Part shown: one piece after another, positions 26,104-64,000 of the stretch
How positions within the stretch are numbered: the first letter of the stretch is position 1
Layout: the number at the start of each line of letters is the position of its first letter
Assembly (NCBI GenBank): GCA_963665115.1
Contig: OY762007.1
Span: forward strand, 5,856,001-5,920,000
Direction of reading: 5' to 3'
DNA from: an uncultured Rivularia sp.
GTDB lineage: Bacteria; Cyanobacteriota; Cyanobacteriia; Cyanobacteriales; Nostocaceae
DNA: 64,000 nt
The notes under the pieces: model-generated
What the model was told of the DNA's origin: nothing
The model's database searches: none
What the model saw: the letters and a program-made list of their open reading frames with translations, nothing else
Program-made: the position numbers and the translations under genes

Positions 26104-26176
<73 letters not shown>

Positions 26177-26185
26177 TACAAAATG

Positions 26186-35862: not shown

Positions 35863-36197
35863 GGATTGGATAGAGCGAATTAGCGAGCGTAGAAAAAAGG
35901 CAGTCGAAAGTAGGCAGTCGGCAGTCGAGAACAAAGAAATATTCGCTTGTATTTGCACCAAAAAACTTTTCCAACAGTTAGTTTTACTCAAAAATAATTT
36001 CCACTGCCGACTGCCGACTGCCGATTGCCCTCCCCGCGTAAATCTCTATAAGAACGTATTTCGCTGCTATTCACTTTGATGCTTCCTAAATCACTTTCCT
36101 ATTACCTCCTATTATCCCTTATGAGCTACCCATTCATAAAACAAAATTACTACTTTCTTCCCCCGACTGCCGACTGCCGATTGCCGACTGCCCTCTC

Positions 36198-38882: not shown

Positions 38883-38909
38883 ACTTAATAATTACATCAT
38901 TAGAAAAGT

Positions 38910-39623: not shown

Positions 39624-39696
39624 GGGCAGTCGGCAGTGGTGAGGAGAATAAAACGTGAGACAGAATTTGTGCGATTAGTGATGAGGTAATTCGTAT

Positions 39697-40745: not shown

Positions 40746-40752
40746 AAAAAAT

Positions 40753-41553: not shown

Positions 41554-43250
41554 TGGATGAGCAGCCATATCAAAATCATGAAACAGAATCGGATAAAACC
41601 GATAGTGATTGGAATGAAGTAAGCTTCGGGAAACTGCTTGGATTTCAAGACGATAATCAATCACATTTGGAAGAAGGAACTGCTTCCATTCAAGATAGTA
41701 ATCCCGAAGTTTCAAACAATCAAGCTGACGCTACAAATCCGATTGCAACTCATGAATTATTTGACTCTCCACATGAGGGGAAAACTCAACCGAATTTCTA
41801 TAGCAATCCTTTCGCTAAATTTGGCGCAGTCGGTTTAGTAATGCTTGTTGTATTCGGCTCGGCTGCGACAGTTCTAAACAGCATTATGTCAGGTAGTCTT
41901 AAAACTGCACCAACAACAGAATACTCAAAACAATCCAAACCCAAGGTAGAAATTGCTGATAATCCACAGGAAAGAGAAACGGGAAAATTAAAAGCAGAAT
42001 TAGCACTATCAACTCAAGCTGAAAAAATTAAATCTATTGAAGGTACTAAAAGCCCTAAAACGGCTGTAAGCAAACCAAAACCCAAAGTTAAACCAACTAT
42101 TGAACCTTCTATAAAAACTAACATTAGACCAACTCCAACAAGAGAATATTCTACACCCGTCAGAACTAAAATAGTTTCAAGACCGCCACGACCGACACGA
42201 GTTCCATATATACCTCGTCCGAAACCACAACCATTACCTGTAAGTTATAGTCCCCCTAGAGTTCCACAAATACCGAAATTTCAACCGACTGCAAATAGAA
42301 TAAGTAAACCAACTGCACCCAAACTTGAAGAAAAAATTGACCCGATGGAAGAATGGACTAAAATTAGTCGTTTGGGAAGCTATGGTTCAAGCGTAATTAC
42401 TGCAAATTCTGATAAGCAAGCCTCGGAAAGTACGCTTGATAACACTATACAAGAAGAAGCAAAACAAATAATCCCCTCTGCAACTTTAGTAAAAGCAGCG
42501 GATTATACAACTCAAATATCAAACAATAATGAGCTAGAACCGCTTCATACCGAAGAAGCTGCAATTATTGGGTATGAAAATAATTATCAATTGCAGGTGG
42601 GGGAATCTGGTGATGGAAAGTTATTAACCCCTTTAATTTGGAGTAAACATCAAAGCAAAAATTCTTTTCAACAATCTAAAAATAAGTCAAAAAGCGAAAG
42701 TTTTGTAATCGAACTGGAACAACCATTAAATACACAAGACGGTTTTGTTGTTTTACCAAAAGGTTCTCAAGTTGTAGCTCAAATTAACAACGTTAATCAA
42801 GGGGGACTCGTTGAACTACAAGCAACACAAGTTTTAATCAACGGACAAGAATACATTCTTCCACCAAATGCGATCGCCATTCGTGGTGACGAGGGAAAAC
42901 CTTTAGTAGCATCTCGTTTAAACAGTAAAAAGGGAGAAATTGCGCGACGAGATGCACAAACTTTTGCTGTAGGTTCTTTAGCGAAAGTAGGTAAAGTCCT
43001 CAACCAGCCAAAGGAACAACAAATATCAACGAGCAGCGGGTTTGGTGGTACTAATTCTTTCTCTTCTGTTAGAAGAGGTCGAGAAAATATTTTAGGAGCG
43101 GTTTTAGAGGGAGGATTTGAACCGCTAACTCAACAAATTCTTAAACGTAATCAGCAAGCACTACAAGAGCTACAGCAACAAGAAGATGTTTGGTATGTCA
43201 AAGCAGGTACGAATGTACAAGTCTTTGTTAATCAATCTTTTCAATTTTAG
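41553..43250 (+). CDS. VirB10/TrbI-like protein
   Basis: TM, proline-rich linker, LPKGSQVV and terminal VKAGTNVQVFVN. Confidence 0.75.
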   Translation: MDEQPYQNHETESDKTDSDWNEVSFGKLLGFQDDNQSHLEEGTASIQDSNPEVSNNQADATNPIATHELFDSPHEGKTQPNFYSNPFAKFGAVGLVMLVVFGSAATVLNSIMSGSLKTAPTTEYSKQSKPKVEIADNPQERETGKLKAELALSTQAEKIKSIEGTKSPKTAVSKPKPKVKPTIEPSIKTNIRPTPTREYSTPVRTKIVSRPPRPTRVPYIPRPKPQPLPVSYSPPRVPQIPKFQPTANRISKPTAPKLEEKIDPMEEWTKISRLGSYGSSVITANSDKQASESTLDNTIQEEAKQIIPSATLVKAADYTTQISNNNELEPLHTEEAAIIGYENNYQLQVGESGDGKLLTPLIWSKHQSKNSFQQSKNKSKSESFVIELEQPLNTQDGFVVLPKGSQVVAQINNVNQGGLVELQATQVLINGQEYILPPNAIAIRGDEGKPLVASRLNSKKGEIARRDAQTFAVGSLAKVGKVLNQPKEQQISTSSGFGGTNSFSSVRRGRENILGAVLEGGFEPLTQQILKRNQQALQELQQQEDVWYVKAGTNVQVFVNQSFQF

Positions 43251-45737: not shown

Positions 45738-46294
45738 TTATGCAATCAAATATATATAGTTTTTATAAAATACGACTTAGTAAAAGTAAAATTATTGTTT
45801 TAATTATATGCATAATTGTCATGACTCTAACTGTATCGACTGTATATAAAACTTTATTTAAAAATCATTCAATCACCACTTGGAAAAATGCAGATGAAGT
45901 TGTACCAAAACTTCTTCTAAAAAAGGTTGTTACTCAAAAATCAACTCGTTATCTTGATATTTCCTCAATAAGGGTTATGCGAATCCCATCCCAAGGTGCC
46001 GGTAACTTATATATTTTTGATTATGGTTCTCCTCAACTTTGTGGTTCTGCGGGGTGCTTATATTCGGTGTATGACGATTCAGGTAAGCTACTTTTAGAAT
46101 TTATTGCCCATTCCCAAATTCCAAAATCACAAAAGCTAATTAAAGTCGGAGAGAATGTTAAGCAAGGCTTTCCTTGTTTGAATATTACTCAATTTACAGA
46201 CACAGATAAATTATTATCTCAAACTAAATTTTGTTATCAAAACGGTCATTACGTTCGCTTAAATAAAAGTTTTATTAGTGAAAAAAATGAATAA
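45722..46294 (+). CDS. Membrane-anchored hypothetical protein
   Basis: N-terminal TM and LCGSAGCLYSVY; co-oriented in the cluster. Confidence 0.6.
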   Translation: MFIKLIMQSNIYSFYKIRLSKSKIIVLIICIIVMTLTVSTVYKTLFKNHSITTWKNADEVVPKLLLKKVVTQKSTRYLDISSIRVMRIPSQGAGNLYIFDYGSPQLCGSAGCLYSVYDDSGKLLLEFIAHSQIPKSQKLIKVGENVKQGFPCLNITQFTDTDKLLSQTKFCYQNGHYVRLNKSFISEKNE

Positions 46295-48115
46295 TGATTT
46301 TCTTGTGGTACAACAACCATCAACACCACCACAAAATTCCCAGTTTGATAAGTTGTCTAATTTAATGAAATCACAATCTGGGTTAGTACTGCTCGGCTGC
46401 TTTGCTAGTATTGGTATTTTCAAATTAATTTCTGGAAGTAATTATAAAGGTAAAGTAGCTACTAGCTATTGGGGTGGTAGTCGAGAAAAATCCCAAGCAG
46501 CCAAGAAAGCGAAGAAGCAGATATCTAAACCAATTCGTAATTCTGTCGGATTATATGTTGGAACTCCCCCTTACATCAGAACTGCTTTACAAAAACAATG
46601 GTATTCTCAAGGTTTACTCAATGCTAAACCAAATCTTAGTCAACAAATTCTTTCTTCCAATTCAACTCTTTATGTACCAGATGCTCAAAGAGGGATAGCT
46701 GTTATTGGTGCAGCTGGTTCTGGTAAAACGTTTTCGGTAATAGACCCCCTTAATTCGTAGCGCATTCGACCAAGGATTTCCAATGCTGCTCTACGATTTT
46801 AAATTCCCTGCACAAACTAAACGAGCTGTAGCTTATGCGATGAAGCGGGGTTATTCCGTAAGAATATTTGCACCGGGGTTTGCTGAAAGTGAAACTTGTA
46901 ATCCGTTGGATTTATTGAGAGATGAAGAAGATGCCATTGCAGCAGGACAACTTACACAAGTTATTTCTCGTAACTTTGACAGAGGTGCAAATGCTAGCAG
47001 CGATAAGTTCTTTGAGGAAGCTGGAGATTCTTTGGTTGAGGGGATTTTACTTGTAACAAAGGCAATTAAAACTTTAACAGGTGAAGATAAGTATTGTGAT
47101 TTAATGATGGCTCAAGCGATTTTATCATTACCAAATTTAGCAGCTAGACTCGAAGCAGCATCAAAAGAAAAACTAAAAGTCTGGACTTCCCGACCATTAT
47201 CGCAGTTAATCAGCGTCAAAGATTCAGAAAAAACAGCTGCATCAATTATTGGTACAGCACAAAGGATGTTCCAACGCTTTCTCAAAAGAGATTTTGTAGG
47301 TGCATTCTGCGGTCAAACAACCCTTCCTTTGGATTTAGACGGGAAACAGTTGATTGTTTTTGGATTGGATAGAAACAACAGAGATATTGTCAGTCCACTG
47401 CTTGCTGCAATTCTTCATATGATTGTAACCCGCAATATAACTCGGACAGTACCACGCACTGACCCTTTGATTGTTGCTTTGGATGAGCTACCGACATTCT
47501 ATTTACCAGCACTCGTCAACTGGTTAAACGAAGGACGCGAAGACGGTTTCGTCGGTATTTTGGGTTATCAAAATATTGCTCAACTTGAGAAAGTATATGG
47601 GAAAGAATTATCGCGAGCAATATTAGGAGGTACTGCAACTAAGTTTATTTTTAATCCCCAAGACCCCCGAATCTGCAAAGATTTTCAGCGATTATTTGGG
47701 AGAGATGGAGATTAGATTTAATTCTAAATCTCAAAGCACTGGTAAAGGAGGTGGTTCTCGTAGCAGAAACGAACATCATCAAAAGCGACATTTATTAGAA
47801 CCCGCGCAGTTTGCCAAAATGGGGACTGGTAGAGCAGTAATCATTAATCCAGCTTATAGTCGTGGCACGGAAGCATACGTTCCCTTGCTCCATAAAATAA
47901 AGGTTCCCCCTAGTGATATTGAAGAAATGAATTGGTCGGAAAGTAAATGGGATTTTGTGCGGGAACGACTGGTTGGAAATAATAAAGTTAGTGTTAGCGA
48001 TGAAGAACGTTCTGCACAGTTTTTAGAGCGTAAAGCATTAGCAGAAAAATTATTTCCATTACCCGAAGAAGGAGAAGATTTGGCTTCTCCAGAGGAATTA
48101 AACAACATTTTTTAA
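46287..48115 (+). CDS. virD4: VirD4/TraG type IV coupling protein; +1 frameshifts at 46745-46749 and 47664-47668
   Basis: TM, Walker A GAAGSGKT, YDFK, CNPLD, Walker B ALDELP, GYQNIAQL..VYG and RHLLEP. Confidence 0.9.
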
Positions 48116-48458: not shown

Positions 48459-49826
48459 ATGCCAAATATATTTACTGTCAACGAAAGTGACGCAACAGCA
48501 ATGCAGCAGCGTTACGAACAATTAATTGAAGTATTATTAAAAGCTGTATTGGATGTAGAACAAAATTCGGACAAACAAGGATTAAAAATATTTGATGGGG
48601 ATAAATTAGTTTATGGACGTGATGAAAATCAATTTCGTGATGAAGTATCTGGTTTCTCAGGAGAGCTATTAAATCCTCAATTAATAACACAACTTCAAGA
48701 ATTACGTTCAACTTCTGTTGGGGAAGTTGTAGATGGGGCTGCTAATAAGAGAATTGAATTAGATGGCAAAGTTCTCTTACAATCTGATTCGGAAGGTAAG
48801 GTAATCGTTAACAATTTTTTGGAGCAAGAAGCTGTTAAAGATAAAATTCCACAAAATTTAGAATATTGGGAAAATCTAGGTAATATTAATCAAATTAATC
48901 AACCAGAATTATCGCCCTTTGAGCCTAATCATACAAACTCACCTCCCGTTTCGGGTTCCACACGAGTAACTGAATCATTACAGTTATTAGAAGATAGTCC
49001 TTTGAAAACATTATTAAGTTCAGAAGTTGAGCAATTGAAAGCAGAAGTAAAAGCACTACAGCAAGAACGTAATTTATATCAGGAATTAATAGAACAAAGA
49101 TTAAAGCAACCTCAAAATACTTCTTGGTGGCAGCAAATAGTTAATAATGCATCAACTGTAGTCTCTAGTGTAACTTCTGCTGTAAAGATAGGAATAAATG
49201 AATTTAAAGAAAATTCAAAGCAACATCAATTTGCAGCATCAATCAAAAACTTATTTCAATTACAAACTCAACCGGGAGAAAATCAGTATCAAGCGGGTGA
49301 TTATCAAATATCTCGCAATGGTTCTTACTACGACGTAAAAGATTCAAGTACAGATAAACTTTTAATGCAGTTTCGGGACACTAATTTAGGAGTCAAAGTA
49401 GAAAAAAGCGATTTAGTAAACTTTGAGATTCAAGATATTAATTCCTTACAAAAATCATTACGTAAAAATGAGCCAATTCCAACATCTTTTGCTCCAGTCG
49501 GGAAACAAGAAGCCGAATATTTTGCTCGTGTTGAGAGAGTTACGAATGCACTTATCGAATATGCTACTGCACAGCAACGAGATGTAGAAATTGATGGACG
49601 ATTTTCTTATAAATGGAAAGCTAGTCCTGATGGTAACGTACAAATTGAAGCGAAAGATGGACGCGGTAGTTTACTTGAAAAAACTGGTGGACAATTAACA
49701 AGTAATATGAACGAACGCGATTTAATTTATTTTGAGCAAATTTTACCTAAGTTGCAGCCAAGAAGTCAAAGACAAGTAATTGCATCTCAAGCTAATCAAG
49801 CTACCGATAACAGCTTAGAAAGATAA
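48459..49826 (+). CDS. Hypothetical protein with a coiled coil and C-terminal SLER
   Basis: 455-aa ORF with an AGGAG RBS. Confidence 0.7.
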   Translation: MPNIFTVNESDATAMQQRYEQLIEVLLKAVLDVEQNSDKQGLKIFDGDKLVYGRDENQFRDEVSGFSGELLNPQLITQLQELRSTSVGEVVDGAANKRIELDGKVLLQSDSEGKVIVNNFLEQEAVKDKIPQNLEYWENLGNINQINQPELSPFEPNHTNSPPVSGSTRVTESLQLLEDSPLKTLLSSEVEQLKAEVKALQQERNLYQELIEQRLKQPQNTSWWQQIVNNASTVVSSVTSAVKIGINEFKENSKQHQFAASIKNLFQLQTQPGENQYQAGDYQISRNGSYYDVKDSSTDKLLMQFRDTNLGVKVEKSDLVNFEIQDINSLQKSLRKNEPIPTSFAPVGKQEAEYFARVERVTNALIEYATAQQRDVEIDGRFSYKWKASPDGNVQIEAKDGRGSLLEKTGGQLTSNMNERDLIYFEQILPKLQPRSQRQVIASQANQATDNSLER

Positions 49827-49835
49827 TTTTATTAT

Positions 49836-51404
49836 ATGAAGTTCGATAATTTGAATTTATACCTAAATTCTGGTATTCCAATTGTTTGTATTAATGCTCC
49901 TTTACCAGAACGAATGAACGTATTATCCGAAATTTATATTGAATGCGCTCAAATACGAAATATTCCCCTTTATGTATGGAATGCTGGCTGGGGATGCTTC
50001 AAGAAAGTAAAATATAATTCGCATTCAATTAGGAGTTTTATTAATCCACAACCTAAACATAGTAATATTTTTACTAGTTTTGATTCTTTATTAAATAATG
50101 AGAAAGCAGGTATTTTTATATTTGAAAATCTATCATCATTAATCAGCATACATTCTCCACAAATTGTATCGTATTTAATCAATATTTACTTTGAGTTTAA
50201 GAATAGTAATAAATTAAAGTATTTAGTGATTTTATCAACTGATAATGTAGAATTACCAGAAGCTTTAAACAGTTTAATTCCTACTATTTCTTATCCATTA
50301 CCTGGTAAAGAAGAAATTATTCAATTGATAGAAACATTCTTATGTGATTCACCAGGAATATTAAATAAAGAATCTTTAATCAGTGCTTGCGCTGGTTTAA
50401 CAAGGGAGGAAATATCTAATGGGTTAAATATTGCACTAAATTCCTGTTCTCAATTAAGTTATGACATTTTCGTTCAACAGCTGCTTGAATATAAAATCAC
50501 TCGCTTTCGCTCTTTTAATTTAAATTTTATTGCTAAACCCAGCATTCCTGATTTTGGTGGTTTGGATTTACTTAAAAAATATATACAAAATGTCAAATAT
50601 GACTTTTTACCTCAAGCACGAACAGCGAAAATTCCTCTTCCTAAAGGGTGTTTATTAGTAGGACCACCGGGAACCGGAAAAACTTTATCAGCTAATGTCA
50701 TAGCCAAAATATTAGGTTTTCCTTTAATTAGTGTAGATACTGCTCTTGTGATTACTGATGGTGCTATTTATCTTAAACGTTTGCTAGAAAGGGTAGAAGC
50801 TTGTGCCCCCGTTGTGATGTATTTTGATGAATTTGATAAACTTTTTGCTGCATCTAAATCTACGGGTGAAGATATCAGTTCTCGCCAAATTTTAGGAACA
50901 TTATTAACTTGGTTGCAAGATAAAACAAGTGCAGTGTTTGTAGTTGCAACTCTAAACCGACTTGATGCATTACCACCGGAGTTAACTAGGGTAGGAAGAT
51001 TTGATGAAATATTTTATGTTGGATTCCCCCAAGCGATTGAGCGGAAAGAAATTCTGATGATGCATCTTGCGAGATTTGATAGCCGTTATAAAAATGGCGA
51101 TGTGCTTACAGAGAAAGAATGGCGAATTGTACTTAATAAAACTGTTAACTGCACGGGTGCTGAGTTATCGCAAATCGTTCAAAAAGCTGCTCGTGCTAAG
51201 TTTCATCTAGGTGAAAAGATGCAGATTGGGTTACATGAACTGTTAGAGCAACGAGAAATGATGGTTCCTTTATACGTTCGAGATACCGATAGAATTTTGG
51301 CGATCGCCAACCGTGCAAAGTATATTACTCAACCAGCATCTAGTCCTGACACGTCGGTTTTCGCTCCTGCAATCAGTAGCTTTTGGGGAGAAGTTTCCTC
51401 TTGA
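49836..51404 (+). CDS. Ycf46-like AAA+ ATPase
   Basis: GGLDLLK, LLVGPPGTGKT, YFDEFDK, ATLNRLDALPPELTRVGRFDE. Confidence 0.88.
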   Translation: MKFDNLNLYLNSGIPIVCINAPLPERMNVLSEIYIECAQIRNIPLYVWNAGWGCFKKVKYNSHSIRSFINPQPKHSNIFTSFDSLLNNEKAGIFIFENLSSLISIHSPQIVSYLINIYFEFKNSNKLKYLVILSTDNVELPEALNSLIPTISYPLPGKEEIIQLIETFLCDSPGILNKESLISACAGLTREEISNGLNIALNSCSQLSYDIFVQQLLEYKITRFRSFNLNFIAKPSIPDFGGLDLLKKYIQNVKYDFLPQARTAKIPLPKGCLLVGPPGTGKTLSANVIAKILGFPLISVDTALVITDGAIYLKRLLERVEACAPVVMYFDEFDKLFAASKSTGEDISSRQILGTLLTWLQDKTSAVFVVATLNRLDALPPELTRVGRFDEIFYVGFPQAIERKEILMMHLARFDSRYKNGDVLTEKEWRIVLNKTVNCTGAELSQIVQKAARAKFHLGEKMQIGLHELLEQREMMVPLYVRDTDRILAIANRAKYITQPASSPDTSVFAPAISSFWGEVSS

Positions 51405-51448
51405 AATTCTGATAGACAGTTGTAAATTTGCATTTCTCAACACAAGAT

Positions 51449-52274
51449 TTACTGTTTTCCTTTTAAAATAGCTCTTTCAATCAGCACATTAATAGCTTCT
51501 GTTGCACAAGCTTTTAAAATTGCAGTCGCCAACCTATTACCTCTATTTGCAAAATGCTCCCATATCGATAACCAATCTCGAATTAATAGTGCATACACAC
51601 TTTTAAAACCTTGTTTCGTCATCACTCTGCATTCGGTGATATCCTTCGACAGATTTAAATCAGATAGGGTTCTTGCCTTCTTAGATGAATAATTAACCAA
51701 CCAGTCGGGGGTCATGTCCAATGCACCTTAATCCTTCCTGGTATTCAATACGATATTCCCCAGACTGCAATACTAAAACTTGGATGCTTATATCAGCTTC
51801 TATTTCGACAGACAACGGATTAGCTATTTCTACCCAATAACGACCAGAGAAGAAACAAGGGTTTGGCGTATTACCAGATGCTGGTTTAAAATTGCATAAC
51901 GCTTTAATTAAAGAATGCCATTGGGGACGAGAAAACTGCACGGGGTGTTCATCTAACTCTCCATTCTTCAATAGTGTAGATAAGTAAATTGCTGCCACAG
52001 ATAAGGGATAAACTTGAACCTCTACACCATTTTCAATTTGCACTGTTAAAATCTCTAAGCTTTGCGATTCAATAAACGAGCGCACAATGTTTTTGGGCTG
52101 ACCAATTAATAGTGCCATTTGACGGTCGCTCATAAATAAGGCACCATTAGGAAGTTGATAAGCTTTCCAGGAAAAATCATGGTAATGCCATGAAGTTGTT
52201 GATACTCTCGGTAATTGTTTATCACAATATTGATGAGCATTTGGGTTGAAAATTATGTTGTTTGCTTCATTCAT
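51449..52274 (-). CDS. Hypothetical protein with two related putative DNA-binding modules; +1 frameshift at 51707-51711
   Basis: AYQLPNGALFMS and VLVLQSGEYRIE start parallel modules; ends GNRLATAILKACATEAI. Confidence 0.55.
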
Positions 52275-53007
52275 AACTACAACTTGTTAACTGTTATCAA
52301 CAGATTAAATTGAATCAAATTTTAACAATTTGACTAACGAGATTGCTGCTAATTGATGAGAAAGATATTTCTGTTTTATTTGTAAAAAAACCAGACATCT
52401 TTGTCCGGTGTTTTCGCCATTTTTGCTGTCTTCGGTTACTTTTATAAATTCATTACTTCAACAAGGGAGAAAGAGAAAATAGCGCCTTAAAAACTTACTT
52501 TGTGATTTTCCTCCCTAGTAGTTGTTATCTCCCGTCAGTTGTGAATTATAAATAGTCCTAACTTTACAGAAAATTCAAATTTGAATGTCAGTTAATTCAT
52601 ACTAGCTTAAAAAAATACAGGCTTCAAATAACTACAACATTTAATGATATTTTGCTGAAAAATTAAAATAATGATTTGAGTTATAAGAGACAAATTATCT
52701 ACATAAAAAAGCAATTTTTTTAAATATATATACGTAGTCGATAAATATTCTCATTTGAAAAATATTCGGTTACTATGCATCAAATATACTGTCACCACAT
52801 TGATACAATATACAGGTCAAGGCATCTTAACAAAAATAAATATTACTCATAGTATCTTCTATGCATTGAATAACACTTATATGAGCAACCTTTATGCTAT
52901 CAATAGTTTTTCTGTAGGGCTGATAAACATATAGTGATTTTAATTACTTATTGCACTGAATTTTTACTATTCAATTAAAATTTCAATTAAATACAGCAAT
53001 TATGATG

Positions 53008-54589
53008 TTAATAGTCTACAATTTGCTGTTTAGTTGTTGAAAACTTAGTAGCATTAGGGAGAATTTTTCCTATGGACTTAAATCTTTTTTCTGACATTTC
53101 AACAACTATTTTTGATATATTCTTGAGATATTCGGATGGTAATGTTGCATTTTCGTCATCAATGGTGAGATAAAGCGTTCTGTGTTCGTGAGGTGCATTT
53201 CTTACCATAATCTTGAGTGCATCTATTGGGGAAGAATTTAGAACTGCTGTTTCTATCAATTCGCGATTATCTCCACCTACACTCAAATGAAACCAGCCAC
53301 TTGAACGTCTGCTACCAGAATGAATCGTAAACTTGTTTTCGCTGTTTTTCAAAGAATACAAATAAGCTCCTGTTGCTCCTCCATCTAAATTCCGGGCTAT
53401 AAATACTGCATTGCAATTAGTCGAAGCATACAATAAACCTCGTTGTCGTAAAGTTTTCAAAAGTCTTTGGGGAATTGAATGCTCGCGATTAAGGTAGTAT
53501 TCGACCTCATTAAAGTTCTTAGAAGACGCTTCGGGTGGTACGAATGTAGAGAAAGGTGTTCTTTTAGCAATACTTAGAGCGTGATTAGAAACTGTATTAA
53601 GCATACCTGTTTGACCAAATCTGTCGCGCAACCAAATTATCGCATCGTCGAGGTTACACCTATTCGCGTCCATGATCAAAGACAATGGATTATCTGAATG
53701 CTTATATTGCAAAAGTCCTAGTTCGTAAGCAATTTCAGATAATGGTATGTCCTGTCTGTACTCGTTTGTTTTAAATAGCTGTAATTCTGTTTCTATCTGC
53801 TGGCGTAATTTTTCGCTCGCAGATGCGGTTTGTTTCCATTGTGCGAGTTGTTCGAGAATTTGCGAACGCTCCCTTAGTTGATGATTAATTATTTCAAATT
53901 GTGGACTTAGTAATTCAATTATCCTTTGTCTATATACTTCACTTGATTCTTGTAGTTGTGGCTGAGGTAGACTTGGTTCCAAATCCATTAATTGAGAATC
54001 TTGATTTACTGCACTATAGTATTTTTTGACTTTAGTGTAAGTTGCAACACTTCCTTTTACACCACGGATGATTCCTAGATGTTTTACAGAAGAAGCGAAG
54101 CTATCCTGTAGCTGATACATTTTCGCTCTCGTACCGAATAAAGCCTTACAGTTAAGCTTTCCTCTTTCATCTAACGGTACGAGATAAGCGTGAATGTGAG
54201 GTGTCATTTCATCAAGATGTAACTCTGCTTTTACTATGCGATCGCCCCAGGAATTGTCTAACCATTTGACAACTGCGTCCACAAAATCGTCTAAACGCTG
54301 TTTGTCATAACTTCCACCTTCATATACTGCATTGGGGACGGAAGTATTCGGCGCTTGCACTCAGTAACATCTCTACAGCCAGAACAGCATCAGAACGGTA
54401 TTTTTGAGAACCAATTTTATTTTTAACCTTTGAAACTAAATCAAGGTTGTCATAATCTCCGACTATTTCTAAGTTCTTTATCTGGAGATTAGCATTAGGT
54501 GTATATACTTCTCTTTTAGCGTGAGCTTCACTGCGGGCTAAAGCTCCCCAAGATTTTATTTTCTGGATTCGACAAATTGAGAAAGCCAT
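53008..54589 (-). CDS. mobV: MOB_V (Pre/Mob) relaxase; +1 frameshift at 54334-54337
   Basis: MAFSICRIQKIK, EAHAKR, RSDAVLAVEMLLSAS and HLDEMTPHIH; C-terminal primase-like extension. Confidence 0.9.
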
Positions 54590-55207
54590 ATATTTTTATT
54601 TAATAAAATAATAACTATTGATTTTACTTACTGTTATCGCATTTATTGATAAGTATGCAGAATTATTGTGCAAAAATATCTAAAAATAGCCAAAATATAT
54701 ATCTTTTTAATTACGTATTTTTTAAACACAATAAGTAATATTTTAGTCATGCTAATTGTGTATAAAGACTGATGATTGCCATTTTTGCGACTTTTTCAAG
54801 TTAATATATCAAACACCTTTATATGGTCAAAACTGGTAATTATACATAAGCAAAGTTTTAAGATGATGTTCCTAGATATAAGCATAGAAATAAATACAGC
54901 AATACAACAATTTTAATTGATGTAAAATTAACTGTCGCTGCTTTTATACTGCTATTTTTTGACACTTTTTATCTAAGTATATTATCTTCCTTTAGTTATA
55001 TTGCAGAAATTAGTATTAGTTTGCTAACAAGGTAATTAAGGTTTTTATTGAATTAATGAGAAATAACGAACAAGACGGAATATTTGAGCTATTAGCTTTG
55101 TTAATCAGATGTGCTGCGCTGGTAAACCATTATTCAGGAATAAAGAACTATGAGCAATTTAATATTTAACGTGATATCTCTTTAATATTTCTCAGCCATC
55201 ATCCAAA

Positions 55208-55235
55208 ACAAAGGTGTAGTGTGTTTCACCTTTGT
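55208..55235 (+). other. Candidate oriT (MOB_V-type hairpin)
   Basis: ACAAAGGTG-TAGTGTGTTT-CACCTTTGT: perfect 9-bp inverted repeat whose loop resembles the pMV158 nic region TAGTGTG/TTA. Confidence 0.45.
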
Positions 55236-55512
55236 AACTAATAAAAAGCTGGAATATTTTATGCCGTATTTTTAACGGTGTATTTAATATTTTCTCAAAT
55301 TACCACCGAATTTAGTCATTTAAGGCTGTGTTTTATCTTTTAAATCCTTTAACCATAGTATCTAGACAGGTGTTATGAAAAGTAAACAGTAAAAAGGAAT
55401 TATAAGGAAAATGGAGATGAAAATAACCGAAAACTCCATAAGTTTGATTAATAATCTACCTTTATTTTCCTTTGCTTTCCTTGAAGTTGCCGCATTAAAT
55501 TAATTAAATTTT

Positions 55513-56620
55513 ATGAGTAAAAACACTCAACAAAAAAATAATTCATCTCCCTTATTAATTCTGGCTTTGGATTTTGGAGGAAGTTCAACCAAAGGTATTT
55601 ACTCGACTTCAATGCGGAATCAAACAGCATCCTTAGTAATGGAACCGGAAGTGGTAAAAATTTCAAATGATTCAGTTGCTTCTGAAGTTTTGGGTGCAAC
55701 CGAACCAGAAAATGCTGCATGGGTTAATTACATGGGTGAAACTTTCGCTGTGGGATATTTGGCGAAAAGTAAGTATTATGCCAATCAGGGATTACAAGAA
55801 TTAAAGTACGAACGTGCAGTTGCGAAAACATTAGCTTTTGTATGGGCTATCTCGCAGAAACTTCAGTTAGGTCAAAAATTTCGACTAGCTCTTATTTGTT
55901 TGCTGCCACCAGGAGAGTTTGAAAATCGAGGGAGTTTTCATAGAAATCTTCAAGCAATACTTGCTGGTTTCATAACTCCAACAGGTAAAATCCAGGTTAA
56001 ATTGACCGAATTCAAGTGTTTACCAGAAGGTGCGGGAATATATCTTGCCTACCAGAAGAAATTAGCACAGCAAATCAAAACTAAAACTATTGCATTGGTG
56101 ATGGTGGGTTATAGAAATGCATCGGTGTTAATCAGCGATAAGGGGATAGTTGCACCTGATGGAAAGACAAGCGAATTAGGAATGATTAGATTACTAGAAA
56201 AAGTTGTTGCTAGAACTTCCGGACAAAACCCTTCGCAATTAGCTCCTGCTGTAGTTGCTGCTGGTAGCGATATTTCTACAAATCCTCTTACAAAGTTGTT
56301 GAAAAGCACTAATAACGTTAATAAACGGCATGAGTTGATGCAAATACAAACAAGCATAAAACTTGCTAGAAGTGAATATGCAGCAGTACTCATAAGTTGG
56401 TTAGACCAGGTAGTTCCCCGTTCAATTGTTTCAGAAATCTTATTTTGTGGTGGAAACTGCTGACTATGTGAGGAGAGAGCTAAATTCTCATTATTCCGGA
56501 ACACCTTGTTTATGGGGAGTGGGAGCAGATATTCCTGCACAACTTGATAACTTTGGTTTGGGAAGTCGTTTGGCTGATGTTTACAGCGTATTTTTATACT
56601 TTTCACAACAGGTAAGTTGA
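55513..56620 (+). CDS. parM: ParM/StbA actin-like ATPase; +1 frameshift at the A run 56454-56456
   Basis: LALDFGGSSTK, LPEGAG, MVGYRN and LFCGG then TAD. Confidence 0.85.
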
Positions 56621-56979
56621 TGTTAAAACAAATAGATTTCCGTTGGCGTTATCAACCGTGTAAACCAATGGATGTCCAATTAATGAGTTATATTCAGTGC
56701 AATCTGATGACTAGTAAAACTCAAATGATGCTTTTAGCAGTGCGCTCATTTTGGTTAACTCATGCTGTGGCTAATTGTTCAGATGATGAAAAAGAAGTAC
56801 AGCGTATAGCTAGAAGTTGCATACAAGCTTTGAGAAAGCAGGCGCAAGAGATTGTTGAATTAGCAGGATTGGAAGATGCTCCAACATTTTTAACCCAATA
56901 TCCATCAATTTCTAATTCCAGAAGCAAAGATATAGAAAATCATGTTTATGATGATGCGGGTTTGAGTAATTTCATGTAG
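56617..56979 (+). CDS. Small protein coupled to ParM, a ParR-like adaptor by position
   Basis: Start overlaps the parM stop; 120 aa with an acidic tail. Confidence 0.5.
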   Translation: MMLKQIDFRWRYQPCKPMDVQLMSYIQCNLMTSKTQMMLLAVRSFWLTHAVANCSDDEKEVQRIARSCIQALRKQAQEIVELAGLEDAPTFLTQYPSISNSRSKDIENHVYDDAGLSNFM

Positions 56980-57011
56980 AAACATTTTGAATCATGAGAA
57001 TGTAGATACTT

Positions 57012-58013
57012 ATGAGTTATAGAAAAATGAAACGAAAAAGAGGCAGACCTAGAAAAACTACTTTAACTCTTCGAGAAGATATGCAGATTGAAAATAATTC
57101 CGAAAAATTAAATGTGGGTAACAATGAATTGCCGACAAATGAAGAAAATTATGATTGGGATAAAGAAATTGATGGCTCGTTCGTCAACAAAGAAATTACA
57201 GAACCTCCAATCAATGGAAAACCAGAGGTAGAACTTAGTACAAGTAATGATAACAACGATGAAAAGCAGCAAACATCAACTAATAGTTTTGTGAGAGTAG
57301 AGAAGGAAAATAGTTTCAAAGAACCAACAATTATTCACATTATTGATGGAGAAAAAGGAGGATGCGGTAAATCGTTTTTTTGTAGGACGTTCATTGAATA
57401 CTGTAATTCCATCGCTTACGATATTGCAATTGTCGATGCGGATATTAGTAACAAAGATATAGCTACTATTTATCCGTCGGTAGAGGTTGCTTTCTTCAGT
57501 GATGATGAAAAGCTAGCATCCAAAGCCGATAAAATATTTGATTTAGCTTTTGAAAAATCTGTACTTGTTAATCTACCCGCTCAAGTTTATTCAAATGTTA
57601 CTGATTGGATACAACGTAATGATTTAGTTAATTTGGGTAAAGACAATTCAATTAAGTTTATTAAATGGTTTGTTTGTATGGGAGGGGTAGATTCTGTCAA
57701 TTTCTTTCTTAAGTCGTTGAACGATTTTGGAAATGACATTACTCATGTATTTGTAAGAAATCAAGGATTATGCGACGAATGGGAGTATATAAACCAGATG
57801 CCAGAATTCCAATCGGCTATTAGCGATTACAACTTTATGATTATGGATTTCCCTAAATTTCCGTTTTGGGAGAGAAACATGATTGACCGCTTGGGGATAA
57901 CTTTCGATATGGCGATCGCACATCCGGAACTGAAAGTTATTCCTAAACAACGGGTGAAAAATTTTCTTAAAAAGGCTTATGCTTCTTTAGCTGCAACGGA
58001 GTTAATTCAATGA
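57012..58013 (+). CDS. ParA/MinD-like P-loop protein (MobD-like) with an N-terminal AT-hook
   Basis: Deviant Walker A DGEKGGCGKS, VDADISN, LVNLPA; N-terminal KRKRGRPRK. Confidence 0.7.
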   Translation: MSYRKMKRKRGRPRKTTLTLREDMQIENNSEKLNVGNNELPTNEENYDWDKEIDGSFVNKEITEPPINGKPEVELSTSNDNNDEKQQTSTNSFVRVEKENSFKEPTIIHIIDGEKGGCGKSFFCRTFIEYCNSIAYDIAIVDADISNKDIATIYPSVEVAFFSDDEKLASKADKIFDLAFEKSVLVNLPAQVYSNVTDWIQRNDLVNLGKDNSIKFIKWFVCMGGVDSVNFFLKSLNDFGNDITHVFVRNQGLCDEWEYINQMPEFQSAISDYNFMIMDFPKFPFWERNMIDRLGITFDMAIAHPELKVIPKQRVKNFLKKAYASLAATELIQ

Positions 58014-58728
58014 GTGCGGGTGATGCTTCTAAAGGTACAGAAGAAAAACCCAAAACTCCCGATGAGTTACGCGGCACGAAGCTTTGAAAGGGAAGAGTGA
58101 AGAGTTTAAGCAGCGAGTGGTTGATTTCGCTTTTAGAAGTGGCTTATCAAAAGATGACCCATTATTTCTGGTACTAGTTGCTACCGGACAATTGGAAGCA
58201 ATGTTACAGGATGCACCAGAAACATTAAAAGTACTTTTTAAAACTTGGAATCAAGATTTAGCCAATAACTTGGAGAAAGTAGAACAAGTTGCTGTTCAAA
58301 GACAAAAAGTAGCAATTAACCGAGCAGCACAAGCTTTGATTCATGAATCTTTGGTACGTGAAGGTCGGAATATCATCAATTCTATTTATCCGGCTGCTAT
58401 TGTATTCTTTCTGATTTTTGGAGCGGGTTTTATCGGAGGAGTAACGATACCACCTTGGATTGTTGGTGTGTTGGGGAAGGGGTATACCTTAGTCAAATCT
58501 AATAATTTAACCTGGGACGAGATGAACGCAATGAAATGGGCAATGTCGAGTGAAGGTAAATTTGCGAGGGATTTAATTAATTGGAATCGCGGTTACTTGG
58601 ATAATAAGGAATGTGTTAAAGATGCTCAAAAGTTAGGAGTAGTTTTATCGCAATATAACCGCAAAGCCAGGTCAGGATTTTGCACCATTTGGGTGGTTCC
58701 GGCAGATAAACGTAAATTTGGTTCTTGA
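58010..58728 (+). CDS. Membrane-anchored hypothetical protein (DUF6753-like); apparent frameshift near 58068-58078
   Basis: ATG 58010 overlaps the previous stop; DDPLFLVLVATG motif, coiled coil, TM and WA.S.EG.FA. Confidence 0.55.
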
Positions 58729-58738
58729 ACCCAAACAA

Positions 58739-58798
58739 TAAAGTTTTAAACTAAGACGTAAAATCGTAAACTAGGTCGTAAAGTTATAAACTAATTGT
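58739..58798. repeat. Three imperfect 20-bp direct repeats
   Basis: TAAAGTTTTAAACTAAGACG / TAAAATCGTAAACTAGGTCG / TAAAGTTATAAACTAATTGT. Confidence 0.65.
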
Positions 58799-58984
58799 CA
58801 CATATCGGAATCGGGATTTGATTTGGAGAAAGAATCTTGAACTATAACTTTTGAGACTTGTTAACCGTTTTTTAGTAAAAACTCTTCTGGTTTTGAGCTA
58901 ATAATTAATGTGACAGTAATAAACTTTATTGTTGGCTTACAGTTCCTGAACGCTAACAATTAAGTTGTAAATCAAGTTTTCTAC

Positions 58985-59263
58985 TCACAACCACCAATAG
59001 TATTGGTCAGCCGGATAAAATTCTCCGGTGTAGCCATCGAAAATTAATTCTTGAGATGATTCTATATCTTCGACTTCAAATTCACTATTTATTGCAGCAG
59101 TTTTTTGAGATTTTTTCGCACTTGGTCTTTCAGCCCAAACGTGTTTATGGTAGCAACGCTTGCAAACAGTTCCATCTGAGTTTTTATAACGCCAGGTAGG
59201 ATTTTTCTTGCATATTCTGCATAAAGACTGTTTCCGTCGTTTTGACTTTCCTTTTTTAGTCAT
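58985..59263 (-). CDS. Small CxxC-CxxC zinc-finger-like protein
   Basis: CRIC...CKRC with basic N-terminus and acidic C-terminus. Confidence 0.5.
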   Translation of the reverse strand: MTKKGKSKRRKQSLCRICKKNPTWRYKNSDGTVCKRCYHKHVWAERPSAKKSQKTAAINSEFEVEDIESSQELIFDGYTGEFYPADQYYWWL

Positions 59264-59316
59264 TTTCCGTACATCTCACTCGAATAGAGAGCATTTGCCG
59301 TTAAATCGCATTCATG

Positions 59317-59523
59317 TCAAAACTCTGTGTAATATTTATCCCAATATTCCTGGGATTTAGCATTCTTTCGCGTTTCTTCTTCATCTCTTGCTGCTTCTTT
59401 TCTACGCTCTTCTATTGAGGTGTCATAAAAATCATCATAGTTCGCATACCCTTCGCTCAGAAGTTCATCGGGGGTCATAGATGAAACTATCTGATATCTA
59501 CTTGTTTTTGGCTGATTACTCAT
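59317..59523 (-). CDS. Small acidic hypothetical protein
   Basis: 68-aa ORF divergent from the polymerase-like gene. Confidence 0.45.
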   Translation of the reverse strand: MSNQPKTSRYQIVSSMTPDELLSEGYANYDDFYDTSIEERRKEAARDEEETRKNAKSQEYWDKYYTEF

Positions 59524-59621
59524 TTATCTACCAACATTAAGATACTAGTCTCTATTTTAGTTGACATATAGTAACTGCGTATCACTTACCGTAAAGAAAA
59601 TTTAGACTCCGCAAACTAACT

Positions 59622-62600
59622 ATGGTTTTAAAACTCAAACACTTTGATACTAAAACTAAACAGGATACTCGAATAGAGGAAAAACTAGAAAACACTCTTG
59701 CAGAATACTTATTCAGGGATGTCAAGTTTAGTATTGGTACTGCTTATCCTGAAGCTACTACTCCCCAAGATTTACAAGAACATAACGGAATGACTTTACA
59801 ATTTTGTGCGGGTAAAAGAATGTATTTTGCAAATGACCCGACTATCCGCTCTAAACTATACCCAAATCCTTCCGATGGTGCAGCATATCCTTTACCTTTT
59901 ACACCCTGTCGAAGTTTTCATGAATTAGAAAATGTCAGAATTTTAGTTGTTGATGATGTCACTGGAGACAACGGTGGTGCGATTGCAAAAAGTGATGCAA
60001 AAAAAATGGTAGGTGATTGTAAAGGTTTAATTGATAAAGATTTTGCTATCTCGAATAATATTGCGTCCCGTGCTTTTCAATTTCGGCTTGGTATAAGACC
60101 TCAAGCACAAAGTCCAGTTATGAGAATTGCTAAGGGTACACTTGCACCAGTGCGATTGGATAAGCTGGGAGACTCATTTTTTACTATGGACGGTAATCTG
60201 TCCGATGGTACTCTCCGTTCAAAATTTGGTTGCGATATGGTACTAGCCACGTCTTCTTTTAAAGGAAGGAAAGGAGAAGATGCAATTCAACCTGGAAAAT
60301 ATACACTTTCTATTGGTTTGGGTGTGAAATCATTAGCATTATATCGAGAGCATAGTTTGGGTACTCAGTTTTTAGTCAATTATCCTCATGCAGTAAAACA
60401 AGAAATTTTACCTATTATAAAACAACAAGCAGAACAACTGGCTCAAGAGCAAAAAGACTCTTTAAAAATAGCGCAGCGATATATTGAAACTTACGAAAAA
60501 CGTAAAGCTTTATGTCAACAAAATTTTCAATTAGATTTGGAACCAAAAGATTTAGATTTAAATAATCAATTTTCTATATTTGACGATTTAGATTCTGATA
60601 GAGAAGACGAAAAACATAATGACAGAGATAATGTTGATTGCGTTCAGAAAGATTTGTTGCTTTATTCGCTACTGAAAGCTGATGTAAACAATTATTGTCA
60701 GTTAATTGAACATCCAAAGATTATGAGCGAGCTTCAAGATTTTGTACGTAAACAGTGGGTAGATATCGCAACTGGACGCTCCATCAAGTTTACTTCTGGT
60801 TTAGCTCAACCAAGTTTGGAATTAAAGTGCGATGAAATATGTATACCATATTTAGATGAAAAGGAAGAAATTATAGTTACTCGTTCGCCATTAATTAATT
60901 CTAATGGTGTTATTACTTTAAAAAATAAATATTTACCTAAAATGTTAGATGGATGTGTTTATATTCATCCAAAAACAGCAATGGATAATATGCAATGTGA
61001 TTTTGATGGAGATTTATTAGCATTTGCACCTAGTAAGGATTTTCCAAAATTAGCAATCGAAGTAAAACAAAGAAACTTATTAGAAAACCGTTATCCAGAT
61101 ATTATCAAAAAAGATAAAATACCCTACAAAGGAACTTTTGAAGAAATTGCTGTTGAAGCGATGGATAATAAGATTGGAATCATTGCTAACGAAATTCAGA
61201 AGAACTTAGCCCTACAATCCGAAATTTGTGCAATGCCTCAATCAGATAAATTTGAATATTTGAGACATTTATCGGAACATTTTAATAAACTATTACAACA
61301 ACATGACCGAGGTAAACTAGCAATTCCAGATAAGATAATAGAGCAAATAATACCAGTTGCCTCAACTAATATCAATTCTATTAATAATTTAGAAATAGAG
61401 GAAAAATTACATCAAGTAAAAAAGATATTGTTTGATTGCGTTGCTCACCTGAGTAACGAACTACAAGTTGCAACAGATGGACCCAAGAGTGCTTTACGTC
61501 CTGATAATGAAATTGTTAACTATTGTCAAAAAATAACAGGTTATAAAGAAGTTGAATGGTTAGCTGATAAGAAAAATCCAGAAGCTTTTACTCTTCAAGG
61601 TATGAAAAGTAATGGTTATAGTCCTATTGACTTAATGATTCAACAAACAAACCAAATTTTTGAACAAAGCCAAATTACGGCAAGACCTATTGAGCAATTT
61701 AGAAAGTTATATCCTACTGTTGAATTTACTGATAAAATTATTAATATAGCTAAAGAAATTAAAAGTCATTATAACTTCTTAATTAAACAACGTATTCAGC
61801 TTGAAGAATCCAAGAAACCCGAACGGGGTCCGTACTTAACTATTACTTCTCCAATTACAGGAAAACAACTAGAGATTACTAATTTAATTTCATTTGATAT
61901 TGCTAAGGATTTTGATTTTTGGCAGTTTTCAAAATTGACTATTGCAATAGAATCAAGAAAACCATCAAAAAATATGCCCCATATTTTTAAGGCTACTATT
62001 AAATCAAAAAAATCCGATGGTAAAGACGTAGATATAACTATTGGCACAATTAGCATGAAGTCTATCCGAGAACATAACCTAAAACCTGGAATGAAAATAA
62101 AACAAGGTAATGTTGAATTTAATTTCGGTATTAGCGATGGTATGGTTGATGCTTTAAAGCAACAAACTCTTGAATATGTTGAATCAATAAGAGAAAATAC
62201 TCCTGATAATGAAAAGCTACAGCTAGCAGCTGCAATTCATGATATTAGTCATACCGAAGAAAATAAAAATTATTTAGGTCTTAAAAAAGCAGGTGTGGCT
62301 TTTGCTATATTTCCCGACGAAGTTATAGGTCAATTAAATCAGTTACAGTTTACTCAAATGAGAGTACTTGGTACTCAGTTCAATCATTATGCTGACAGAA
62401 ACTTTGCTGGTGAACAAGTCCCGGTAAAATTTGAGAATGGTATTAATCCCCGTGCCCCCAATCAAACTGCGCGTTGGATAATTGTAGAAGGTAACAAGCT
62501 GGGTACTATTGATGCCTCTTCTCCTCATTTGCTGGCTGGATGTGAAGCGATTGCTGCTATAACTTCTCCTCCTAGTAAAAGCGTTATTATCACCAGCTTG

Positions 62601-63416
62601 AAAAATTCAGATAATAAATTACAAATTGATAACGTTAATAAATATGCTTTTAAATATCGTCAGTGGCAGAATGAACAAGCCAATATTACTTTAGTTATAG
62701 GACAAACTAACCGACATAAAGCACCAACTGTGTTTGCTAAGATAAATAATCAAATATTAGGAACTGTTAATAAAAAATCAGTCAATTTTTTACAAGAAAA
62801 ACTTGCTGCTGTTGGTAAGTCAATTCAGGGATTTACGTTTTCAGGTACCTTAAAAAATGCTCCTGTTAGCTATGCGGATATTACAATTGACCCTTCTACC
62901 GTAAAGTTTCCACAAATTGAAACTACATTACAACATGATAAAAACTCGATTGAAAGTAGTAAGCCGGTTTGCACCGTTTTATTTTTTGAAGCATCTGTAG
63001 ATAGTAAACTTCAGCCATTAACAGAGCAAGTAATATCTAATATGCTCCATCGAGCTGTTGAACGTGCTGCTGAGTTGGGTTATGAGAAGGTACAGTTTGT
63101 TGATGTTTCTACAAATCATACAGAGTCTTCAGCTTCAAGAACTATTAAGCAACTTGCAGCTGAACACCAAGATATAACTGTTGATTTTATCGGTAGTGCT
63201 TCTGTTGAAGATGCAATCGGATTGATGAAGGAACCATCAGATATTGCAATCGGGATTAAGAGCGCTCAAAGTCTTGGCATTATTGATTTTGTAACTGCTC
63301 AGGGAAAGGCGATCGCCACATATAATCCTCAAACGCAAAAATTTGATAGACGGAATTTACCTGCTCCGAAAAAGACTGCTGAAATAACTAAAGATATTGA
63401 ACGCGACGAACGTTGA
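59622..63416 (+). CDS. Single-subunit two-barrel RNA polymerase-like protein (RdRP/YonO-related)
   Basis: Ordered motifs GDCKGLI, AFQFR, AKGT, SSFK, VTRSP, QCDFDGD (60999-61013 for DFDGD), IGIIAN and LQVATDGPKS. Confidence 0.8.
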   Translation: MVLKLKHFDTKTKQDTRIEEKLENTLAEYLFRDVKFSIGTAYPEATTPQDLQEHNGMTLQFCAGKRMYFANDPTIRSKLYPNPSDGAAYPLPFTPCRSFHELENVRILVVDDVTGDNGGAIAKSDAKKMVGDCKGLIDKDFAISNNIASRAFQFRLGIRPQAQSPVMRIAKGTLAPVRLDKLGDSFFTMDGNLSDGTLRSKFGCDMVLATSSFKGRKGEDAIQPGKYTLSIGLGVKSLALYREHSLGTQFLVNYPHAVKQEILPIIKQQAEQLAQEQKDSLKIAQRYIETYEKRKALCQQNFQLDLEPKDLDLNNQFSIFDDLDSDREDEKHNDRDNVDCVQKDLLLYSLLKADVNNYCQLIEHPKIMSELQDFVRKQWVDIATGRSIKFTSGLAQPSLELKCDEICIPYLDEKEEIIVTRSPLINSNGVITLKNKYLPKMLDGCVYIHPKTAMDNMQCDFDGDLLAFAPSKDFPKLAIEVKQRNLLENRYPDIIKKDKIPYKGTFEEIAVEAMDNKIGIIANEIQKNLALQSEICAMPQSDKFEYLRHLSEHFNKLLQQHDRGKLAIPDKIIEQIIPVASTNINSINNLEIEEKLHQVKKILFDCVAHLSNELQVATDGPKSALRPDNEIVNYCQKITGYKEVEWLADKKNPEAFTLQGMKSNGYSPIDLMIQQTNQIFEQSQITARPIEQFRKLYPTVEFTDKIINIAKEIKSHYNFLIKQRIQLEESKKPERGPYLTITSPITGKQLEITNLISFDIAKDFDFWQFSKLTIAIESRKPSKNMPHIFKATIKSKKSDGKDVDITIGTISMKSIREHNLKPGMKIKQGNVEFNFGISDGMVDALKQQTLEYVESIRENTPDNEKLQLAAAIHDISHTEENKNYLGLKKAGVAFAIFPDEVIGQLNQLQFTQMRVLGTQFNHYADRNFAGEQVPVKFENGINPRAPNQTARWIIVEGNKLGTIDASSPHLLAGCEAIAAITSPPSKSVIITSLKNSDNKLQIDNVNKYAFKYRQWQNEQANITLVIGQTNRHKAPTVFAKINNQILGTVNKKSVNFLQEKLAAVGKSIQGFTFSGTLKNAPVSYADITIDPSTVKFPQIETTLQHDKNSIESSKPVCTVLFFEASVDSKLQPLTEQVISNMLHRAVERAAELGYEKVQFVDVSTNHTESSASRTIKQLAAEHQDITVDFIGSASVEDAIGLMKEPSDIAIGIKSAQSLGIIDFVTAQGKAIATYNPQTQKFDRRNLPAPKKTAEITKDIERDER

Positions 63417-63451: not shown

Positions 63452-64000
63452 ATGACAATGCTTTTTGATATCGAGCAATATCGTGCCCCAGATTCACAAA
63501 ACCACAAAGGTGACTGGGATGGTGTGAAGTATGATGGAGCTTGGGATATGATGGTTCGGCTTTTCCACAAACTAGTTCTAAAACTTCTTTACAAGAAACT
63601 AGTGGTAGTAACAAAACTGATTGTTGGTATACCCCACCATCAATTGTTGAATTAGTCATACAGGTTTTAGGAGAAATAAATCTTGACCCTTGCGCGGATG
63701 ATGGACGACATATAAGAGCAGCAAAGCATTATACGTTTGATGATGATGGGTTGAAACAGCCTTGGTGTGGGAAAGTTTATATGAACCCTCCCTATTCGCA
63801 CCCTGGTGTTTGGATGAAGAAACTGCAACTTGAATTTGAAACGGGTAATGTGGATGAAGCAATTGCTCTTGTACCAGCTGCTACGGACACCAATTGGTTA
63901 TCTCCAGTTTTGAAAACTCAACCTGTGTGTTTTTGGAAGGGAAGAATTAAGTTTTTAGGTCAAGATTACCAACCAAAATTATCTGCAAGACAGTCTCATG
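63452..64000 (+). CDS. Phage-type DNA N6-adenine methyltransferase; frameshift near 63548, 3' end outside the window
   Basis: Translated by hand: DCWYTP, LDPC, DGL.QPW.GKVYMNPPYS (NPPY at 63784-63795), LVPAATDTNW and GRIKF. Confidence 0.85.

Follow-up and report, generated by a model that had tools for sequence, protein, structure and literature searches.

Bacterial relatives of the polymerases of RNA interference (RNAi) have been under discussion since 2010, with Ruprich-Robert and Thuriaux describing in that year a cyanobacterial YonO-like family with eight invariant residues and calling for experiments (PMC2919709). Aravind and co-authors reported RNase H fusions in the cyanobacterial versions in 2012 and, citing Iyer and Aravind 2011, proposed a primase role (PMC3417536), and YonO has itself been characterised, with its cyanobacterial homologues mentioned (PMC5467207). 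Here we describe a member of this family encoded in a 64,000-nucleotide stretch of the genome of an uncultured Rivularia sp. (contig OY762007.1; the whole stretch is referred to below as the window), together with a gene for a 68-residue partner and the conjugative element that carries both. We tentatively propose a two-gene system, in which the conjugative element would inject a polymerase resembling the RNA-dependent RNA polymerases (RdRPs) of eukaryotes into the recipient, there to copy or transcribe the element's single strand, and a diversifying, allele-matched microprotein would plug its catalytic DFDGD site.

The polymerase is a member of a known family, and the partner and the swapped cassette to which it belongs are the new part. 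Like the described cyanobacterial YonO-like/RdRP-like proteins, the window protein is a single-chain, two-barrel protein on a selfish element, with RNase H fusions seen in some members, and its family shows the same sporadic cyanobacterial presence on mobile elements. The existence of computationally noted relatives had been guessed in an earlier annotation of the window made from its sequence alone (the original prediction), and the guess was right (PMC2919709, PMC3417536); the partner gene and the swapped cassette were overlooked there. The portions of these two accounts available to us mention no small partner gene, exchangeable cassette or inhibitor. Likewise, the literature searched, in which subscription papers and supplements were mostly outside coverage, yielded neither an experimental study of the family nor a partner or inhibitor, and the available main text of a paper on polyvalent proteins (PMC5512222) does not cover the polymerase family.

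Amongst more distant relatives, QDE-1 and RDR2 (PF05183; PDB 2J7N, 7Y7P, 7W82) have in common with the window protein a fold over about 530–550 residues, a DxDGD loop and an ordered series of motifs, whereas the window protein is 13–15% identical to them, has three beta units and a Rossmann-like domain in addition, and belongs to a bacterial mobile element. Thermus phage gp64/gp62 (PDB 8F72, 8F5M; Z 18.4–18.7) and SPbeta YonO are likewise single-chain bacterial two-barrel enzymes, but serve phage transcription, with the window protein about twice as long as the solved gp64/gp62 chains. [quoted passage not shown] The blocker of gp66 is part of the same chain, whereas that of the window protein would be a separate, allele-matched protein encoded on a conjugative element. 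The Sog primase of IncI1 plasmids is carried across by the conjugation machinery (PMC11288057, as available), and is thus an element-encoded, RNA-synthesising enzyme that reaches the recipient, a journey that we infer for the window protein, which is of a different enzyme class.

The polymerase and its predicted fold

The polymerase gene is, as originally claimed, an uninterrupted open reading frame (ORF) of 1264 codons, and each motif of the original prediction occurs once, at the residue given for it: GDCKGLI (D132), AFQFR (Q153), AKGT (K171), SSFK (211), VTRSP (R421), CDFDGD (D460–D464), IGIIAN (518) and VATDGPKS (D619), along with the beta-rich repeats TIGTI (806), KLGTI (959) and ILGTV (1045). 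These residues were paired with those of QDE-1 by motif order rather than by residue-level superposition. In an alignment of 148 homologues, counting only rows bearing a residue at the column in question, the catalytic aspartates, on whose conservation the original prediction had staked itself, are almost invariant (D460 and D462 in 147/148, D464 in 148/148), as are D132 (145/146), Q153 (146/146), K171 (146/147), R421 and K622 (both 147/148), with R155 and P423 also within the set kept in 145–148 of 146–148 rows. Because of this near-invariance the series of motifs is, at the level of sequence, beyond chance. The ratio of non-synonymous to synonymous substitution rates (dN/dS) of the whole gene lies between 0.20 and 0.28 in 11 of 11 comparisons, and a public contig, possibly from the same sample, is identical to positions 58904–62234 with zero differences.

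An AlphaFold2 model of residues 51–1250, built from a 64-row alignment (mean predicted local distance difference test (pLDDT) score 87.8; predicted template modelling score 0.77), has RDR2, QDE-1, phage gp64/gp62 and crAss gp66 in the top ranks of a Foldseek search. VIA superpositions, which cover model positions 1–860 (residues 51–910) and with which a wide fold search agrees, align 537 residues with RDR2 (Z 20.5, root mean square deviation (rmsd) 6.0), 484 with gp64 (Z 18.7, rmsd 4.9) and 543 with QDE-1 (Z 17.5, rmsd 5.7). The double-psi barrel gives separate matches at model positions 339–422, and the Atlas features of residues 1–720 score 0.96 to PF05183-bearing clusters. The modelled polymerase almost certainly has the RdRP-like two-barrel fold, and is very probably an active enzyme, with the original RdRP/YonO-like assignment supported by fold, conservation and neighbourhood alike.

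The similarity is less evident to direct searches. The window polymerase matched nothing in Pfam (the PF05183 model included), NCBIfam or the sequences of the PDB; the PF05183 cut-off is passed by 4 of 40 distant homologues, a deeper profile of the polymerase gave only a weak match to Pol IV, on the DFDGD barrel (E 0.8), and a PHROG search gave one unnamed PHROG (E 2e-12). Homologues number 291 among 7995 scored candidates, and with a profile of the core 456 representatives reach E 0.001 or better. Many cyanobacterial genomes (e.g. G099:C12, G373:C2 and G086:C1) encode a class of more distant homologues, about 890–930 residues long and matching at E about 1e-12.

About 600 C-terminal residues were originally left unassigned. 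This does not stand for the core, whose RdRP-like fold extends to residue about 909 and not about 660; the beta-rich units noted there are real, and the remaining part consists of a Rossmann-like domain at the C terminus and three beta units related to one another. Profile comparison relates units 2 and 3 at 97% probability (E 1.5e-11) and units 1 and 3 at 91% (E 1e-6), with no match between units 1 and 2. A HIRAN identity for these units, considered by eye, was not supported, no match being found to a shallow, 9-row HIRAN alignment or in Pfam, with the fold searches having barely probed the units. The Atlas search with residues 730–1264 gave no usable match. For residues 1112–1250 the fold matches FUT1, Card1, LOG (Z 8.4) and YpsA (Z 8.0) are tied at Z 8.0–8.7, and a sequence search of this region for SLOG/YpsA gave no meaningful match; from its model, the domain is possibly a degenerate one of SLOG/YpsA type.

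The partner gene and the predicted complex

A small gene lies head to head with that of the polymerase. Of 81 loci with a polymerase start, five were set aside for insufficient upstream DNA, and 72 of the remaining 76 carry a homologue of the partner by iterated hidden Markov model search. Amongst the four misses, the motif can be made out by eye in two; in a third the gene lies downstream of the polymerase in the same orientation, and the fourth (L061) shows none. Residues E20, S23 and G25 are conserved in at least 90% of 53 aligned partners, the last residue is F, I or L in 53/53, and judging from a pooled dN/dS of 0.18 over 13 pairs the gene is under purifying selection. A Pfam search with the 68 residues gave no convincing family. 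Searching 401 genomes, with one further match from the window's own genome, yielded 22 distinct partner genes, of which 21 adjoin a polymerase gene and one lies at a contig end.

Two variants of this arrangement were observed. The paralog L089 (G000:C1:1727828–1730410) encodes 860 residues in an open frame with a variant DCDGD motif; much of what would follow residue about 600 (the bridge/clamp part and beta units 1–2) is missing, and the partner gene is downstream of the polymerase rather than upstream. In distant Nostoc-type elements (L105, L106, L108–L111 and L005:14428–14961) the partner position is occupied by a divergent gene of 179–188 residues with two FNxDGxLK-like repeats, which intermediate forms join to the short partner.

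The complex of the partner with polymerase residues 1–915 was predicted with ESMFold2 from paired alignments, giving an ipSAE of 0.85, compared with 0.00 for the best of three controls. The ipSAE mark is a rough guide here, our own alignments having been used; 116 of 157 solved pairs reached it, compared with 2 of 215 mismatched ones. Repeat runs have at least 84% of contacts in common, with a partner pLDDT of at least 77. In the predicted complex S23, E24 and G25 of the partner contact G463, D464 and L465 of the polymerase, with the interface further including Y89, Q153, R421–P423, 516–526 and 618–622, whilst partner residues 44–51 contact beta unit 1 (757–758 and 790–808) and the end of the partner lies near residue 824. 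Conservation is 84% for the core contacts against 67% overall, and 53% for the beta unit 1 contacts; furthermore, over 30 non-independent loci, the partner helix and its beta unit 1 contacts correlate in their identity (rho 0.44), more so than the helix and a core stretch (rho 0.09). The model supports binding of the polymerase by the partner, which is probable, and suggests its inhibition, which we consider reasonably likely. Allele-specific inhibition would follow from the placement of the conserved S-E-G at the active site and of the variable helix on beta unit 1.

An exchangeable cassette

Compared with the elements L026, L030 and L037 and with the genome's own paralog, polymerase residues 1–830 are only 66–71% identical, with synonymous divergence (dS) near or above 1, whereas residues 850–1264 are 83–86% and the flanking DUF6753 protein 89–96% identical. 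The drop in identity at the DNA level spans about 58730 to about 62100, and FastTree trees of the two parts of the polymerase (23 rows) are in conflict, with at least three deep cassette alleles among these element backbones. Across 12 close elements, partner identity tracks that of polymerase residues 1–830 (rho 0.75, permutation p 0.0005) but not that of residues 850–1250 (rho -0.02) or DUF6753 (rho 0.05), the two flanks correlating with each other at 0.82. By these sequence comparisons, the partner and the polymerase's N-terminal part are swapped between elements as a single cassette. The predicted interface, spanning residues 20–850, is essentially the swapped cassette.

Association with conjugative elements

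The polymerase gene is a backbone gene of a conjugative element integrated at tRNA-Phe, and all four polymerase copies of this genome sit within type IV secretion clusters. A survey of gene neighbourhoods, called for in the original prediction, covered 80 related loci, of which 48 had at least 9 kb of upstream DNA; transfer genes recur upstream in most of these 48, with ParM at 40, DUF6753 at 38, TraL at 36 and a MOBV relaxase at 35. Homologues were found in at least 55 of 401 cyanobacterial genomes, with two candidates scored per genome, and the model strain Nostoc PCC 7120 also carries them on its plasmids. A tblastn search of 50,697 phage records with the polymerase found none, and one viral contig gave a weak match. 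Longer homologues carry additional C-terminal domains, with RNase H, DUF3991 or DUF3854 in 3 of 15 scanned, SLOG, NADAR, DUF4326, RNase H or helicase domains in 9 of 22, and a Macro domain likewise among the tails. The RNase H fusion occurs in one protein of each set (P0118 and P0220), the window protein being without RNase H.

Proposed function

The reading that we favour, with a probability of roughly 0.4, is of a DNA-templated polymerase that is kept off in the donor by its cognate inhibitor and is active on transferred ssDNA in the recipient. The 68-residue partner would hold the likely DNA-templated polymerase inactive in the donor, with S23-E24-G25 on G463/D464, and its variable helix would grip beta unit 1 and so make inhibition allele-specific. 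The type IV system of the element may export the polymerase without its plug, the polymerase may make RNA primers or first transcripts on the incoming ssDNA, and plug expressed by the new host would shut it off again. Action in the recipient is favoured because the gene sits in the backbone beside those for relaxase and secretion, homologues have ssDNA-related tails, the C-terminal tail shows a pattern enriched over background, and there are the precedents described above; export and action there fall a little short of an even chance. Of the functions suggested originally, DNA-templated RNA synthesis tied to transfer fits best, and the RNA-templated role has no support here.

If the inhibition is as predicted, the partner would be a naturally occurring inhibitor that acts in trans on an RdRP-class enzyme; if export is true, an RNA-polymerase step would be added to conjugation. 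A cognate inhibitor would also provide a practical handle, allowing co-expression for purification, binding and inhibition assays, allele swaps and a structure target, and genetics is feasible because homologues are present on the Nostoc PCC 7120 plasmids.

Several observations weigh against this reading. Adjacency alone could yield the joint travel of the partner and the polymerase N-terminal part, and the surveyed loci, rich in Rivularia/Calothrix records that are close kin, are not independent. Amongst the genomes searched, a partner match was obtained in 16, compared with 55 for the polymerase; because 39 of these 55 gave no partner match at E 0.001, distant clades may lack the partner or carry an unrecognisable form, and the 179–188-residue form of Nostoc plasmids matches by its N-terminal repeat and has no evident S-E-G motif. 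Of the 89 plasmid records bearing homologues, 43 were typed as conjugative and 16 as mobilizable, with the other 30 typed as non-mobilizable. The C-terminal tail pattern, present in 19 of 51 distinct tails compared with 87 of 2792 genome ORFs, was picked after the tails had been inspected, and is mostly absent from the relaxase (3/33). Additionally, the element has a primase-like ORF of its own, albeit by a weak match, lessening the need for a primer-making enzyme.

Alternative explanations

The polymerase might instead transcribe the genes of the element within the cell from promoters belonging to the element, in the manner of YonO and gp64 in their phages, with the partner as an anti-polymerase switch until induction. 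Whilst the nearest characterised bacterial relatives are transcription enzymes, according to the available text (PMC5467207; 10.1101/2022.12.01.518664), and the divergent gene pair and predicted plug are equally compatible with a switch, we regard this role as rather improbable: no repeated promoter-like 12-mer is shared by the intergenic DNA of the element and paralog, which share only a short tandem repeat, and the homologue tails (RNase H, SLOG, NADAR, helicase) suit the handling of ssDNA better. A sigma-70 scan gave fewer sites than shuffled sequences (19 vs 36).

A toxin-antitoxin or effector-immunity pair, in which unchecked RNA synthesis harms cells without the plug and thereby stabilises the element or hits competitors, is unlikely, as the gene pair is usually divergent and not co-transcribed, L061 shows no partner, and shared alleles are not depleted among elements that reside together, with 2 of 10 within-genome and 32 of 425 between-genome pairs at or above 80% identity. 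This is despite the tight pairing, the presence of several deep alleles, whose dS exceeds 1 in parts of the cassette, inside elements that are otherwise 85–95% identical, and a predicted interface combining a conserved catalytic part with a variable specificity part, all of which such a pair would explain. The single operon of type II toxin-antitoxin systems is not seen, the genes being divergent at the surveyed loci and on the same strand, with the partner downstream, in one paralog. Superinfection exclusion by matching alleles was not supported by these counts.

The sigma finger and the Gre/TFIIS finger offer an analogy for a partner acting as a positive cofactor, an acidic finger aiding initiation or transcript cleavage. 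The conserved acids E20, E24, D30 and D31 are indeed predicted to reach the active-site region; however, the contacts on D464, R421–P423, Q153, Y89 and 618–622 would together be expected to shut out template and nucleoside triphosphate, making this role distinctly unlikely. A true RNA-templated polymerase, RNAi-like or in RNA-based defence, is highly implausible despite RDR2 and QDE-1 being the best fold matches, with none of the scanned window ORFs matching an Argonaute, Dicer or CRISPR family, transfer genes as the conserved neighbours, and QDE-1-type enzymes transcribing ssDNA more strongly than RNA, as far as the source is available (10.1101/2020.03.07.982082).

Genomic context

The hallmarks of an integrative conjugative element, namely integrase, attachment repeat, relaxase, coupling protein and type IV secretion genes, are all present (Table 1), bearing out the conjugative context proposed originally, with the element beginning at tRNA-Phe.

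Table 1. Positions, in window coordinates, of the polymerase, its partner and other features of the element.
Feature	Position	Strand	Basis or remark
tRNA-Phe; 3' 45 bases are the attachment site	26103–26177	+	repeat about 131 kb downstream
Tyrosine integrase	26353–27546	+	
Primase-like ORF, 749 residues	29884–32133	+	weak PHROG match only, E 0.0026
Type IV secretion genes (VirB4-like 36198–38882; VirB10/TrbI-like 41553–43250)	36198–43250	+	
VirD4-type coupling protein	46278–48115	+	several frames in this assembly
MOBV relaxase with DUF3991	53008–54595	-	two frames in this assembly
ParM-like actin	55513–56463	+	
TraL/MobD-like protein	57012–58013	+	
DUF6753 gene	58084–58728	+	conserved left flank of cassette
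Exchangeable cassette: partner gene and polymerase residues 1 to about 830	58730–62100	.	approximate borders; identity drop, trees
Cys-rich ORF, 92 residues	58985–59263	-	restricted to the window's own cassette allele
Acidic partner gene, 68 residues, divergent from polymerase	59317–59523	-	predicted active-site plug
Single-chain two-barrel (RdRP/YonO-like) RNA polymerase gene, 1264 residues	59622–63416	+	predicted from motifs, conservation, model
RdRP-like core, residues 1 to about 909	59622–62348	+	predicted model; 51–909 superpose on RDR2, QDE-1, gp62/gp64
Catalytic DFDGD motif, D460–D464	60999–61013	+	motif and conservation among homologues
Beta unit 1, residues 733–835, inserted in core, strongly allele-variable	61818–62126	+	predicted contact for variable helix of partner
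Beta units 2 and 3, residues 908–1095	62343–62906	+	mutually homologous by profile comparison
C-terminal Rossmann-like domain, residues 1112–1250	62955–63371	+	model; aligns only in closer homologues
C-terminal tail ending IERDER; candidate secretion signal	63372–63416	+	inferred from tail pattern
N6-adenine methyltransferase, right neighbour	63541–64000	+	continues past window edge

Two further copies of the tRNA-Phe 3' end lie at G000:C1:6012942 and, inverted, at 6144457–6144501; the first of these two is followed by a related integrase, so the elements are in tandem. Frame splits at 53008–54595, 46278–48115, 11797–13417, 7300–8284, 9665–10730 and 18478–19601 affect the relaxase, the coupling protein and housekeeping genes, with RF3, ALAD and a transketolase-fold gene split or shortened. 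Since housekeeping genes of the window are likewise split or truncated, this suggests that assembly indel errors lie behind the split relaxase and coupling genes.

An unannotated backbone protein of 455 residues (48459–49826), encoded 3' of the coupling gene, has the C-terminus SLER, resembling the polymerase tail, and is, by its sequence, a second candidate secretion substrate. Short tandem repeats of ACTGCCG type, rare elsewhere in the genome, occur in the intergenic DNA of the element (35394–39625, and about 65940, beyond the window); L007 and L012 likewise have them inserted upstream of the polymerase gene. The relaxase-ParM block (51400–57300) is swapped relative to the paralog G000:C1:4252500–4258500, with 39–62% protein identity between flanks of 80–96%, and on this comparison is a second exchangeable module. 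Downstream cargo in L001–L002 (window-equivalent 68600–97000) resembles, by eye, glycosyltransferase, ABC-transporter and sulfotransferase genes.

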